From positions 2,332-66,331 of IMG/VR virus record IMGVR_UViG_2833692911_000002: a stretch of DNA of 64,000 bases. The stretch is one strand, 5' to 3'. The notes beneath the pieces are model-generated. The model did no database searches and had not been told where the DNA came from. It saw only the letters and a program-made list of their open reading frames with translations. The DNA is from a virus. Taxonomy: Duplodnaviria; Caudoviricetes. Of this stretch, positions 5,063-59,043 are shown piece by piece; within the stretch, counting starts at the first letter, position 1, and each line of letters opens with the position of its first letter. A program made the translations under genes and the position numbers.

Positions 5063-5117
5063 CATAACCCTGCTGCTTTGTCAACCAAAAGGCGGCCACC
5101 ACCCAGAGGAGATCAAA

Positions 5118-5525
5118 ATGAACCGCATTGCAATTGCGATAGCGCTTGCTGCGTCTGTAACGCTAACGGCTTGTTCCGACGATGCACAGATTGCCTCGCA
5201 GAACCTGTCGAAGGCAGCTGATAATTTCGAAGTCAGCCGCCGCATCATTTTCTACAACGGTATCACCGACACTTATATGCTGACCATCGAAGGCTTGTGC
5301 AGCATCTCTGTCGGCGAACGAAAGCTCGACGTGACATGCAAGACTGGGCCCGGACAGTACAAGAAGCACTTTCTCGGTCTCTCCGACAACGTCACGTTTT
5401 TCGCCGAGCAGTTGGAGGGTAAGTCGGTTAGCGCGTACCACTACCGCGTCACCTTCAAGCCTCAGTCCATAATTCCCGACGTCAACTTCCGCGGCGACGG
5501 CAAGGAACTCACCGCAAATCACTGA
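5118..5525 (+). CDS. Phage lipoprotein
   Basis: Signal peptide with lipobox LTAC. Confidence 0.8.
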   Translation: MNRIAIAIALAASVTLTACSDDAQIASQNLSKAADNFEVSRRIIFYNGITDTYMLTIEGLCSISVGERKLDVTCKTGPGQYKKHFLGLSDNVTFFAEQLEGKSVSAYHYRVTFKPQSIIPDVNFRGDGKELTANH

Positions 5526-5564
5526 CCCGCTACCAAGAGGTCACCACCACCCAGAGGAGACGAC

Positions 5565-5915
5565 ATGACGCTTATCACCAGCACTATGCTGGCGGATATG
5601 CACGCGCGCCGTGAAAACGGTGAGAGCGTCGCAGATATCGCCGCCAGATACAACGTCAAGCCAATGGCAGCATACCAGAGGCTGCGGCGCACATACGGCC
5701 TGCACAAGCAGCGCGCAATCATCCCGGCCAACGACAACAATCCCGACCGCATTACGCGCCTGGCGCCCCACAACGGCGGCTGCTCCACGCTTTCCGGCCT
5801 CATGCCGGTTTCGCTCCCGCGTGTTCCCACCGCCGCAAATGACAATGCTGACGATTTGGCAGCCGGGCAGGCGGTCAACGACTACGCTTTGCGTAGTGAG
5901 CGGGTGGCGGCATGA
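5565..5915 (+). CDS. Small HTH protein with two ANDN motifs
   Basis: GESVADIAARYNVKPMAAYQRL HTH; ends AVNDYALRSERVAA. Confidence 0.75.
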   Translation: MTLITSTMLADMHARRENGESVADIAARYNVKPMAAYQRLRRTYGLHKQRAIIPANDNNPDRITRLAPHNGGCSTLSGLMPVSLPRVPTAANDNADDLAAGQAVNDYALRSERVAA

Positions 5916-6193
5916 CCTGCGATTGCGAATTCTTCAATTTCGGCGATCCAGTCCGCAACCGGCAAAACCCTCATCTCACTGGCGTCGTGATCGGCGATCG
6001 CAACTGGGGCAGCGAGTATCAGGTGCGCCTTGCCGACGGCGACTCGACGATCTGGTGGCATGGCTTCGAGATCGAGCATGATCTGGATGGAGAACCGCCG
6101 GCGAAAGAGGATGACGACACCAACGTCGTCAAGGTCGACTTCACACAGCGGCGCGCGATGACCGCCGAGACAACAACGGAAGGAGCAGCGTGA
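5912..6193 (+). CDS. Hypothetical SH3/KOW-like protein
   Basis: FNFGDPVR...GVVIG...YQVRL; ATGA coupling. Confidence 0.7.
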   Translation: MTCDCEFFNFGDPVRNRQNPHLTGVVIGDRNWGSEYQVRLADGDSTIWWHGFEIEHDLDGEPPAKEDDDTNVVKVDFTQRRAMTAETTTEGAA

Positions 6194-56776: not shown

Positions 56777-56852
56777 GATTATCGGCCTTACCAGCCTGCT
56801 TTACCAGAGCACCACCACATTGGCGCACGGTCGCCAGAAAGAGGGGATAATC

Positions 56853-57512
56853 ATGCTCAGACGATTCCTGCGGCGTATTGTGTCGCCACGCGCATTCCTC
56901 GTTGCCTTATTCCTCGTCATCGCCGCAACCTCCGCGGCCGCATATGCGCTCCTTCCTCCGCCAGCGTCTGCCGCGACCGAAGCGGCCACCGTTAAGATCC
57001 AACTCGAAAACGGCCACGGTTCTGGCGTTCATATTGGAGATGGATTTATCGTCACTGCTGCGCACGTCGTCGGCGATGCGAAGGAAGTTCAGCTGAAAGC
57101 GAAGGCGGGCGCTCTTCGCAAGGCCGATGTCCTTTGGGTCAACAAAGCCAATGACATTGCACTGCTGCGCACGTCGTCGGACGGCCTCGGCGTCGCAAAA
57201 CTGGCCTGCCACGCTGTGAAGACTGGCGATCCTATTGTCGCTTACGGCAATCCGTTGAAAATCGAATTCGTTGCTGCCTACGGGAAGATTGCCGGCGAAC
57301 CTCGCGAAACAGGTCCCTGGAAATCGGTCTACGTGACCGACATCACGACTGTGATGGGGCAATCGGGTGGCGGAACCTTTGCGGAGAACGGCGACTTGAT
57401 CGGCATTACCGTCGGCGTGATGGCCGCGCCGATTGGCTTCTCTGGTTCGCTGGTTGGCTATGGCTACGTCGTGCCTTCGACTGCGGTCTGTGAGTTGTTG
57501 GCGCGGAAGTAA
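56853..57512 (+). CDS. Exported trypsin-like (S1) serine protease
   Basis: Signal/TM; VTAAHVV, DIALL, GQSGG. Confidence 0.88.
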   Translation: MLRRFLRRIVSPRAFLVALFLVIAATSAAAYALLPPPASAATEAATVKIQLENGHGSGVHIGDGFIVTAAHVVGDAKEVQLKAKAGALRKADVLWVNKANDIALLRTSSDGLGVAKLACHAVKTGDPIVAYGNPLKIEFVAAYGKIAGEPRETGPWKSVYVTDITTVMGQSGGGTFAENGDLIGITVGVMAAPIGFSGSLVGYGYVVPSTAVCELLARK

Positions 57513-57565
57513 AATCAATCAGGCCGCCCACCAAGCGGCCTCAACCACCACATCGAGGAGACTGC

Positions 57566-58819
57566 ATGCCTCTACCCATCGAAGAACTACGCCGAAGAGC
57601 CGACGCCTACAAAGAGCACGGCACGTTGAAGAAAGCTGCTGCTGCCCTTGGGATCGGCAAGTCCGCGCTGCACGACAGCATCAAACGCGCCGCTGAGGCT
57701 GGCCTCCTCGGCACGGAGCCTGTTTTGCCCGGCTTCCGCATCAGCAAGATCAGCAACACACCAAGTGGCACGTTCATCCAGCAGACGCAGGAGCGCGGCG
57801 AGAAGTTTGCCGTACCCAATGGCCATGTTGTCAAAGGCGTGTCGGCGCTCGTCGATGGTGAAGGCCGTGTTATCCAGCAGTGGCAGAAGACGGCAGTCGG
57901 TGCAGAGGGCCAAATAGCGGCTTTCCAGGCGATGGTCGACGGCCTGAAGGAAGACCTGCCGCGGGTTACGATCATGCCAGCGCCGGCGCATGTCGAGGAA
58001 GACCTTCTGAACCAGTTCGTTGTCACCGACAGCCATTTCGGTATGCTGGCCCATCGCGAAGAAACAGGCGCCGACTATGACCTGAGGCTGGCCGAGCAAT
58101 TGCTGCTGGATTGGTTTGCCGCCGCTGTGGCGGGTGCTCCGCAAGCGCACACAGCGGTTTTAGCGCAGCTCGGCGACCTGTTGCACCATGACGCCCTCGA
58201 AAGCGTGACGCCAGCGCACAAGCACGTCCTCGATGCCGATTCTCGCCTTCATAAAGTTGTTCGCGTCGTCATTCGCACACTGCGGCGTGTCGTCGACATG
58301 CTGCTTCAGAAGCACAAGCATGTCCATGTCGTCATGGCGTCGGGAAACCACGACCCAGCCTCATCGGTATGGGTGCGCGAACTGCTGGCGACGATTTATG
58401 AGAACGAGCCGCGCGTGACCGTCGATACCAGCCCGATGCTCTACTACGCATACAAGTGGGGAGACACGGCGCTGTTCTATCATCACGGTCATAAGCGCGG
58501 CGTGGCCCAGGTCGACGCAACGCTCGCAGGCATGTTCCGTGAGATGTTCGGTCAGTCGAAATATGCCTTCGCGCATGTCGGCCACCTGCACAGCGACGAG
58601 GGCCGCAAGTCGGCCCTGATGTATGTCGAGCGCCACGAAACGCTTGCAGCGCCTGACGCCTATGCTGCCGGTGGTGGCTGGCTGTCCGGGCGATCAGCCA
58701 AGGTCATCACATATTCGCGCCGCTACGGCGAGGTGGCGCGCTCCACGCTGCGTCCGGAGATGGTTGCGGGTCGGTATTCGGCTGCGAATGACAATGAGCC
58801 GGTGAGGGCGGTGGCGTGA
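57566..58819 (+). CDS. HTH plus calcineurin-like phosphoesterase
   Basis: KAAAALGIGKSAL; DSHFG, LGDLLH, GNHD, HHGH, GHLH. Confidence 0.85.
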   Translation: MPLPIEELRRRADAYKEHGTLKKAAAALGIGKSALHDSIKRAAEAGLLGTEPVLPGFRISKISNTPSGTFIQQTQERGEKFAVPNGHVVKGVSALVDGEGRVIQQWQKTAVGAEGQIAAFQAMVDGLKEDLPRVTIMPAPAHVEEDLLNQFVVTDSHFGMLAHREETGADYDLRLAEQLLLDWFAAAVAGAPQAHTAVLAQLGDLLHHDALESVTPAHKHVLDADSRLHKVVRVVIRTLRRVVDMLLQKHKHVHVVMASGNHDPASSVWVRELLATIYENEPRVTVDTSPMLYYAYKWGDTALFYHHGHKRGVAQVDATLAGMFREMFGQSKYAFAHVGHLHSDEGRKSALMYVERHETLAAPDAYAAGGGWLSGRSAKVITYSRRYGEVARSTLRPEMVAGRYSAANDNEPVRAVA

Positions 58820-59043
58820 GCGATTACGCTATTGAGTTGGTAGCAATCGAACTACACAAGCAGTCGCAGTCTGTGGAGCTAGGGCGCAGAAAAATAAAGT
58901 GGCTTCAACTTTCTGCCTGTCAAAGACAATGGTGGAGAGATGCGGCTAGACGCGTCGCCTCGGAGCAGTAGGCAGTTCAGGAATAACCATGACGCCGCTG
59001 GCGACCAACCGGCGGCAAACACCACTACAAGAGGAGATTGAAC

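Follow-up and report, generated by a model that had tools for sequence, protein, structure and literature searches.

The window analysed here, 64,000 nucleotides long, runs from base 2332 to base 66331, the last, of the virus record IMGVR_UViG_2833692911_000002, which is one sequence of 66,331 bp. Our subject is a set of short hairpins with ACCA in their loops that precede genes in the early/replication region of this 16-3-like temperate phage of Rhizobiaceae. Prophages in Agrobacterium tumefaciens and A. rosae are close to it (93% identity in the clamp), and the classic phage 16-3 of Rhizobium (Sinorhizobium) is related more distantly. The hairpins open a leader of three parts, which are, from 5' to 3', the stem-loop, a CACCAC(A) box and an extended Shine-Dalgarno (SD) sequence, GAGGAGAC. 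This leader is confined to repressor-controlled early operons, where it either comes first or stands between two cistrons. We also describe an unannotated candidate small RNA (sRNA) of the same phage, with which the leader may pair.

Gene families were assigned by Pfam and PHROGs scans of 30 protein queries, mostly early genes. The early region encodes an AAA_24 recombinase-like protein, a DUF669 protein, a sliding clamp, a Cas4-like exonuclease, an ECF-like sigma factor, an SNF2 helicase, a phosphoesterase, methyltransferases and a primase-helicase; genes for a trypsin-like peptidase, a repair exonuclease and a pyrophosphatase lie at 56.8-59.5 kb. A repressor-like gene on the minus strand (4411-5013; phrog_4) has 46% identity to p070 of 16-3. 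On the plus strand, an early promoter is predicted at 5034-5062 (TTGACA-17-TAGTTT), with predicted copies at 14220-14248 and 56748-56776. Common to these three rightward promoters is the sequence TCTTGACAAATTTGTAAAAA (at about 5030, 14217 and 56745), which includes a 10-bp palindrome, ACAAATTTGT. The palindrome is found in four predicted promoters, those of the three early operons (5037-5046, 14223-14232 and 56751-56760) and that of the sRNA (4365-4374), and is presumably the operator of the protein encoded at 4411-5013.

Hairpins and leaders in the window

Seven strong hairpins on the plus strand, described in an earlier note made from the letters of the window, are present exactly where and as it read them. 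First, GCGGCTGG CGACCAA CCAGCCGC (7357-7379) forms 8 bp, 10 nt past the stop codon of the open reading frame (ORF) 6190-7347 and 4 nt before CACCAC. Second, GCGGGCTGC CTCACCA GCGGCCCGC (9471-9495), with nine pairs including one G-T, precedes the clamp gene, 5 nt from its CACCAC. Third, GGCG CCACCAA CGCC (11529-11543), with only 4 bp, overlaps the last codons of ORF 10551-11546 and precedes the sigma-factor-like gene, with 6 nt to CACCAC. Fourth, ACGCCA CACCAA TGGCGT (14257-14274; 6 bp) begins at the predicted +1 of the promoter at 14220-14248 and abuts CACCAC with no gap. Fifth, GCCGCG CCACCAA CGCGGC (16121-16139; 6 bp) is separated from CACCAC by 17 nt, in which lies a second small hairpin with a TTCG loop (16142-16153). 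The last two, AGGCCGC CCACCAA GCGGCCT (57521-57541; 7 bp) and GCCGCTGG CGACCAA CCGGCGGC (58994-59016; eight pairs including one G-T), precede the exonuclease gene and the pyrophosphatase-like gene, 4 nt and 3 nt from CACCAC, respectively.

The copies that the same note called weaker, also on the plus strand, are weak indeed, having G-T pairs and long loops, 5 bp, or 3-bp stems. GCTGCTTT GTCAACCAA AAGGCGGC (5072-5096) has eight pairs, two of them G-T, around a 9-nt loop, is followed directly by CACCAC, and begins approximately at the +1 that promoter spacing predicts for 5034-5062. TGACC and GGTCA (5523-5543) enclose, with 5 bp, an 11-nt loop containing CTACCAAG and overlap the stop codon of ORF 5118-5525. 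At 56784-56810, two mini-hairpins of 3 bp, with loops CTTACCA and TTACCAG, stand at the predicted +1 of the promoter at 56748-56776 and are followed by CACCACCACA. Two further copies can be added, namely, GTGTCG CCACCA CGACAC (24008-24025, plus strand), absent from the earlier note and located 2 nt before CACCACGAGGAGA and the ATG at 24046, and a variant without ACCA in its loop, GACGC CCGCCAA GCGTC (1906-1922, minus strand), before the CA-rich leader of ORF 1655-1867. Every copy, on either strand, has the sense orientation of its downstream gene. The stems 5' of the cistrons are GC-rich, some of them standing right after stop codons, and the loops, mostly of 7 nt, have the form C-N-ACCA-A or C-N-N-ACCA; 3' of the hairpins we find ACTTCACC, TACTCCACC, CACCACATT, CAACCACC, AAACACC and similar sequences. 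A separate, perfect 6-bp hairpin, CGCCAG CAACCAA CTGGCG (4082-4100, plus strand; loop TTGGTTG on the minus strand), lies within or antisense to the poorly supported minus-strand ORF 3947-4213, upstream of a 40-codon plus-strand ORF (4138-4260).

The rest of the leader is exemplified by CACCAC-N6-GAGGAGAC-N-ATG at 7384-7411 (plus strand). Other leaders were found on the plus strand at 5097-5120, 5542-5567, 7905-7927, 8862-8883, 9501-9525, 11550-11572, 14275-14298, 16157-16181, 24028-24048, 57546-57568 and 59020-59046, and on the minus strand at 1865-1901, 2667-2706 and 2975-3004. A strict pattern, CACCAC-N2-8-GAGGAGA-N4-7-ATG, gave 12 matches (11 distinct sites) against 0.05 expected, and a looser definition gave 16 sites in the genome.

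The association of the hairpins with these leaders, with 0-17 nt between stem end and CACCAC, was evaluated in two ways. First, an ACCA-loop hairpin is the best hairpin in the 50 nt upstream at 8 of the 16 leader sites, compared with 1.2% of 20,000 random 52-nt windows (binomial P = 5e-12). Second, using crude gene calls, such a hairpin precedes 7 of 14 leader genes and 1 of 87 other genes. A permissive scan for ACCA-loop hairpins alone yielded 32 on the plus and 26 on the minus strand, where 200 shuffles gave 19.4 +/- 4.7 per strand and 34 at most. The count of the motif alone is thus low in information, while its position at leaders is far from chance. The leader module, moreover, is the phage's own: of two Agrobacterium genomes (5.1 and 5.5 Mb), one has 7 strict leader matches and the other 10, all of which fall inside the prophage, and a reversed control pattern has no match in either genome.

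Conservation of the hairpins among related phages

A search with the clamp protein returned 76 viral loci (32-97% identity) and two Agrobacterium prophages. Directly upstream of the clamp gene, 37 distinct hairpins were found across 56 loci. Their stems fall into at least six unrelated sequence sets, replaced wholesale among loci, and their loops are 7-mers such as CTCACCA, CCCACCA, CTAACCA, CGCACCA, CCACCAA, CAACCAA and TCACCAG. The earlier observation that stems differ and stay paired while loops keep ACCA is confirmed.

For covariation, we assembled 24 gap-free hairpins with 7-nt loops, 19 of them orthologous and five being paralogues from the window; from 21 distinct orthologous hairpins with such loops, L154 was dropped as another hairpin had been picked there, and L164 as that of a distant relative with the loop TTTGCCG. 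A gap-free pair count was preferred, as MAFFT alignments of such short hairpins shifted some rows by one column. In this set, 95.8% of stem cells are paired, compared with 56.5 +/- 3.2% when the 3' letters are shuffled among sequences, all seven stem pairs have changed on both sides, and slid registers are paired at 32-42%. Since the hairpins were chosen by a hairpin finder, the paired state is partly due to selection, and it is the shuffle that shows the pairing to be specific to each sequence. At one position, 7 of the 24 hairpins have a G-U pair; such pairs exist on the sense strand alone, which makes this a structure of RNA or, at the least, of one strand.

The loop was evaluated across the 35 sources that carry the sRNA, which contain 347 leader sites, 251 of them with a hairpin ending no more than 25 nt upstream. 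Among the 146 unique hairpins so obtained, ACCA is present in 65 loops, against 16.5 +/- 3.6 in letter-shuffled loops (2000 shuffles, largest 29), and 7 nt is the commonest loop length (52 of 146). The loop is therefore conserved as a sequence and not in composition only. In the right 36 kb of phage 16-3 there are 13 leader sites, five of them with the loops CGACCAA, CACCAA, CCACCAA (twice) and CTCACCA. Altogether, the hairpins are a real, conserved, phage-specific and strand-specific RNA element.

A candidate sRNA beside the repressor-like gene

The candidate sRNA, of about 130 nt, is located on the minus strand at 4350-4223, just downstream of the repressor-like gene, on the same strand and 25 nt behind it, with no terminator between the two that we could read. 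Its predicted promoter, TTGACA-17-TAGGAG (4358-4386, minus strand), contains the palindrome ACAAATTTGT. The sRNA consists of a 5' hairpin, a middle domain and a long 3' hairpin. The 5' hairpin, GTCCGC TGTGGTG GCGGAT (4350-4332), begins about 7 nt past the -10 element; an anti-SD sequence, GGTCTCCTC, follows at 4296-4288; and a second GTGGTG lies in the 3' hairpin (4253-4248), after which comes a T-tract to about 4218, the predicted terminator. Within the 3' hairpin this second GTGGTG can pair with CACTAC at 4236-4241 (minus strand; CATTAC in relatives), so that a target-like sequence inside the sRNA could mask it until a target opens the hairpin.

Conservation of this gene was assessed at several distances. 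Fifteen close relatives keep it at 75-96% identity, and in them the closing pair of the first hairpin switches from C-G to A-T. A search for a TTGAC promoter followed by a GTGGT-loop hairpin recovered the sRNA in 36 sources, including distant ones with different 5' stems, namely, GTCGCT/GGCGAT, TGCCGCT/GGCGGTA, GCTCGCT/GGCGAGT and GCTGAT/GTCAGT. In alignments of 20 diverse sRNAs, neither TGTGGTG nor the GTGGTG of the 3' domain varies, each position of GTCTCCTC is the same in all or in at least 90% of the sequences, and RNAalifold reports compensatory changes in 10 of the 20 pairs. A covariance model scores 100.6 bits in the window and finds the sRNA in 38 of 56 related sources; the other 18 mostly have too little upstream flank for the site to be included. 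In the alignment fitted to this model, 92.1% of cells are paired, compared with 78.9% after shuffling, and 56 cells have changed on both sides, against 21.5, with none of 500 shuffles as high and slid controls much lower.

The model also finds a homologue in phage 16-3, at 36894-37022 on the minus strand (81.3 bits; positions 1395-1523 of locus L277), where the annotation leaves a gap between p069 and the repressor-like p070, which is the second repressor-like gene of 16-3 besides that of the C repressor. In each Agrobacterium genome the model points to one place, inside the prophage (150 of about 1,300 first-look candidates were scored). Rfam finds only tRNAs and ar35 at gathering threshold in the window, no match at E <= 1 in 5000-16300, and chance-level matches only in 4150-4450, where the sRNA lies. 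The sRNA is a conserved structured gene. An mRNA element targeted by an sRNA calls for a partner RNA, and for the leader a partner gene appears to be at hand in the same phage, with a promoter and a terminator, both predicted, and with structure and conservation.

Other partners were considered. Clusters of TGGT, when scanned for, proved to be no more than the complements of minus-strand leaders. A second sRNA-like gene of this phage, matching the alpha-proteobacterial sRNA family ar35 (22029-22142, plus strand; 45.9 bits against a gathering score of 45) and equipped with a terminator, is flanked by a small ORF and by a gene on the minus strand. Its ATGTGG is complementary over 6 nt to the CCACAT found in leaders, which may be chance, and this sRNA-like gene was rejected as the partner since its fold has no UGGU loop and it holds no full complement of the box.

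Contacts between sRNA and leader, and competing explanations

The sRNA and the leader are complementary at three places. First, TGTGGTG of the sRNA 5' loop is the exact complement of the leader consensus CACCACA, and duplexes of the box (7-8 nt) with this loop have predicted energies of -11.7 to -14.0 kcal/mol. Second, the unusual extended SD, GAGGAGAC, finds its exact complement in GTCTCCTC, and duplexes of the SD with the anti-SD reach -16.1 and -20.5 kcal/mol. Third, the hairpin loops can pair with the sRNA at -9.2 to -11.3 kcal/mol (CCACCAA and CCACCA), -7.0 to -7.5 kcal/mol (CTCACCA and CACCAA) or -5.4 to -6.9 kcal/mol (CGACCAA), the complement being 5-7 nt long for CCACCAA, CCACCA and CTCACCA, and only 4 nt for CGACCAA. 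In addition, a second sRNA motif, GGGTGGTG, complements CCACC, as well as CACCACCC at the leaders of 5097 and 5545. A rough estimate puts at the order of 1e-5 the probability that two given words, a 7-mer and an 8-mer, both occur by chance in an RNA of 130 nt.

At the level of whole start regions, RNAduplex of the full-length sRNA did not discriminate, as it returned long, unrealistic duplexes, and it was replaced by the gain in RNAcofold energy and by the motif-level duplexes above. The median gain is -10.3 kcal/mol for 15 leader genes and -4.3 kcal/mol for 86 others (Mann-Whitney P = 7e-6). This is consistency and not discovery, as the leader class is itself defined by the pairing motifs, which makes the comparison partly circular, and 12 of the 22 best scores belong to non-leader genes.

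The distribution of the elements was also compared. Three complete relatives (G004, 69 kb; G005, 83 kb; G006, 66 kb) have no match to the sRNA model. They also have no leader matches, compared with 12 in 16-3 and three in another carrier of the sRNA, and at the clamp site their loops are TTCG, TACG and AGTTT in place of ACCA. Such co-occurrence fits a functional link between sRNA, leader and loop.

Taken together, these observations lead us to favour, as somewhat probable, a link between the sRNA and the leader as its predicted target. Whether the hairpin loops serve as auxiliary contact sites for an sRNA that blocks early translation is, in our judgement, evenly balanced. The earlier note had offered the loops as kissing partners for UGGU loops of an sRNA, and part of this stands: the sRNA exists, is conserved, and carries GUGGU in its 5' loop and GUGGUG in its 3' domain, so that kissing is plausible and fits the co-occurrence. 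However, the loop is the weakest of the three contacts, the box and the SD, whose complements in the sRNA that note had not connected, being far better matched.

Several points weigh against the proposal beyond the circularity of the RNAcofold classes. A complement of at least 5 nt is present in only 43 of the 146 unique loops (21.4 when shuffled), and the conserved 3' A of ACCAA, by our reading, would be opposite a G in either sRNA motif, so that pairing leaves part of the loop consensus unexplained. The short complement and this 3' A are the reasons why we hold a specific contact of the loop with the sRNA to be tentative. The sRNA motifs never vary, therefore covariation between sRNA and leader cannot inform on the pairing. 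The three relatives devoid of the sRNA are also the most distant ones, and co-occurrence is thus confounded by relatedness; moreover, in relative G009 (81% complete), where a CCACCACAA loop and CACCAC leaders occur, neither the model nor the motif pattern finds an sRNA. Finally, the promoter and start site of the sRNA are predictions, and the RNA-library contigs mentioned below cover only 5030-15000.

As to what the loop does, the chief competing explanation is a phage or host RNA-binding protein, for instance a translational repressor, antiterminator or chaperone, that would read ACCA in the loop and the CACCAC box, with the sRNA acting on box and SD only or independently. We consider this unlikely, although it would account for a specific loop kept while stems turn over, for an invariant core of ACCA plus the 3' A that sRNA pairing does not explain, and for the several single-stranded copies of ACCA in most leaders; the absence of the leader from the rest of two host genomes would fit a phage factor. 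Against it, no RNA-binding family appeared in the Pfam and PHROGs scans of the 30 protein queries, whose sole translation-related match, an L7/L12 C-terminal-like stretch in ORF 6190-7347, is under the curated cut-off. One such protein site, the boxB-like element put forward in the earlier note, finds no support, since there are at least ten copies per genome, mostly intercistronic, with C/A loops of 6-7 nt and no adjacent boxA-like core. An 8-nt boxA core has no exact match in the window, and its 27 one-mismatch occurrences (36.7 expected) include none beside a hairpin. General Pfam and PHROGs scans, in which no search was aimed at such a protein, turned up no N-like arginine-rich protein. 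Lambda-type nut sites also differ in number and placement, being one or two downstream of early promoters.

A purely structural role, which we judge less likely still, would make the hairpins 5' caps that guard each processed cistron against 5'-end-dependent decay, and insulators keeping leader and SD unpaired, with a C/A loop simply avoiding pairing. At each of the three rightward promoters of the operator type, a hairpin does begin at the predicted +1, and the sRNA too has one at its start. In distant relatives the site retains a hairpin, with a TTCG or TACG tetraloop, and the RNA libraries of a relative contain contigs that span the hairpins at 7357 and 9471, as this explanation would have it. 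Yet composition yields only 16.5 ACCA loops on shuffling against the 65 seen, and ACCA loops track the presence of sRNA and leader, tetraloops their absence. The earlier note also named processing signals, which the hairpins may be; sequence continuous across two of them speaks to full termination only.

Weak intrinsic terminators or attenuators between early genes, suggested by GC-rich stems directly past stop codons, are very improbable. The earlier note was correct in ruling out terminators: a T-run is missing after every copy, the loop is kept as a sequence, and three copies stand at predicted 5' ends. The contigs spanning two hairpins speak weakly in the same sense and argue only against full termination, since these contigs, from a related prophage over 5030-15000, give no ends, strand or level, and their uncovered stretches are uninformative; likewise, contig starts at about 14410-14420 reflect where the relative becomes alike and not a transcript start. 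Intercistronic stabiliser hairpins and intrinsic terminators share the GC-rich intergenic stems of our element and differ in its conserved loop and lack of a T-tract. A signal in DNA, whether part of a promoter or an extruded hairpin, to be read by a phage polymerase or the phage sigma factor, is scarcely credible despite an ECF-like sigma factor and repeats preceding genes, given that the distance from loop ACCA to CACCAC varies between 11 and 28 nt, that stem G-U pairs occur on the sense strand only, and that there is no giant virion polymerase (the longest ORF has 959 aa). The promoter reading was rejected for this variable spacing, and a tRNA-like microhelix with 3' NCCA as an RNase P signal was likewise set aside, since its stem-to-ACCA distance would vary between 0 and 17 nt.

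Among known systems, the closest in mechanism is the c4 RNA of phages P1 and P7, a small immunity RNA that, as far as the available text of the source describes it, blocks the ribosome-binding site of ant through complementary sequences thought to lie in loops (PMC12197685). Both c4 and our candidate would be small phage RNAs blocking translation around an mRNA ribosome-binding site. However, c4 has one target operon, compared with at least 15 cistrons carrying the same label here, and our sRNA, unlike c4, adjoins a protein repressor gene and has its own operator-bearing promoter; there is no relation in sequence or by Rfam. The closest in genome pattern are the SAS of Cluster K mycobacteriophages, which, in the portion of the paper available, are described as a conserved repeat at 11-19 non-structural gene starts per genome, in one orientation; about half of them have an inverted repeat just upstream (ESAS), of unknown function and with a suspected role in translation (PMC3203893). 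According to that same portion, the ESAS arms of 17 bp are conserved and the spacer varies, whereas here the arms vary and the loop is conserved, and it mentions no partner RNA; sequences and hosts are unrelated. Neither the 13-bp SAS consensus nor the conserved 17-bp arms were matched by the leaders and hairpins of the window.

Two-site loop-loop complexes between sRNAs and mRNAs, and the anti-SD sRNAs of alpha-proteobacteria, combine short complementary loops, one SD contact and C/U-rich anti-SD motifs in loops. The known cases of both kinds are chromosomal regulators with diverse targets, whereas here the regulator and a repeated, uniform label both belong to one phage.

From the sequence features described above, we infer that the sRNA is transcribed, that it pairs with the leaders in vivo and represses them, and that the loop has a part in this. 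The mechanism that we propose is as follows. As early promoters and sRNA promoter share one operator, the sRNA would rise with the early mRNAs; and with no terminator after the repressor-like gene, it could also belong to the repressor transcript in the lysogen. The ACCA loop would offer a pre-exposed, unpaired CACCA or ACCA for a first loop-loop contact with one of the two GUGGUG motifs, and the pairing of SD and box, the strong contacts, would then exclude the 30S subunit from every labelled cistron. The stem would meanwhile cap or insulate the 5' side of the cistron, given its place at the predicted +1 at the three operator-type promoters and, elsewhere, a few bases past the upstream stop codon. 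The outcome would be a joint shut-off of early translation and/or a tighter immunity against leaky or superinfecting early transcripts. The ECF-like sigma factor gene (Sigma70_r2 and r4; 11570-12106, plus strand), to which p107 of 16-3 is similar, has its own hairpin and leader upstream and would share the proposed control.

The repeated leader labels may also act as joints for the swapping of gene cassettes. Contigs of two RNA libraries from the related prophage join 5095 to 5544, omitting the VG64-like gene, with 17 letters that fit either side, and this joint falls within the repeated leader (CACCACCCAGAGGAG), as if leaders were recombination joints for cassettes. Other features of the window include the plus-strand ORF 6190-7347, which encodes a 385-aa early protein of PHROG 4317 (function unknown) in which SH3-like stretches recur and a stretch at the C-terminus resembles the C-terminal domain of ribosomal L7/L12 (E 1e-4, under the Pfam cut-off); three tRNA genes (Met-CAT, Thr-TGT and Pro-TGG; 25634-26089, plus strand); and, among the early genes, homing-endonuclease-like genes (NUMOD3/AP2 and LAGLIDADG) at 16736-17728 and 59789-61324 (plus strand).

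In the literature that we searched on 16-3-like phages and phage sRNAs, which left most subscription journals outside its coverage, there is no report of such an sRNA or of such leaders, and the available text of a 2025 review of phage sRNAs does not mention Rhizobium, Sinorhizobium or Agrobacterium. It is thus tempting to speculate, at a confidence that stops short of an even balance, that the sRNA is a second, RNA-based layer of immunity or early shut-off that reads a three-part label on at least 15 early cistrons, across the 16-3-like phages of Sinorhizobium and Agrobacterium. If so, a regulon-wide anti-SD riboregulator owned by a phage would have stood unannotated in 16-3, a genetically classic phage that has long been in laboratory use together with Sinorhizobium meliloti, a non-pathogenic pair. 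Temperate phages are known for a single antisense RNA acting against a single target, and a uniform label on a whole early set would differ from this. It would also explain the upkeep of an unusual extended SD and of CA-rich leaders that the hosts do not use, and it would amount to a simple, transferable, post-transcriptional switch-off for a set of genes.

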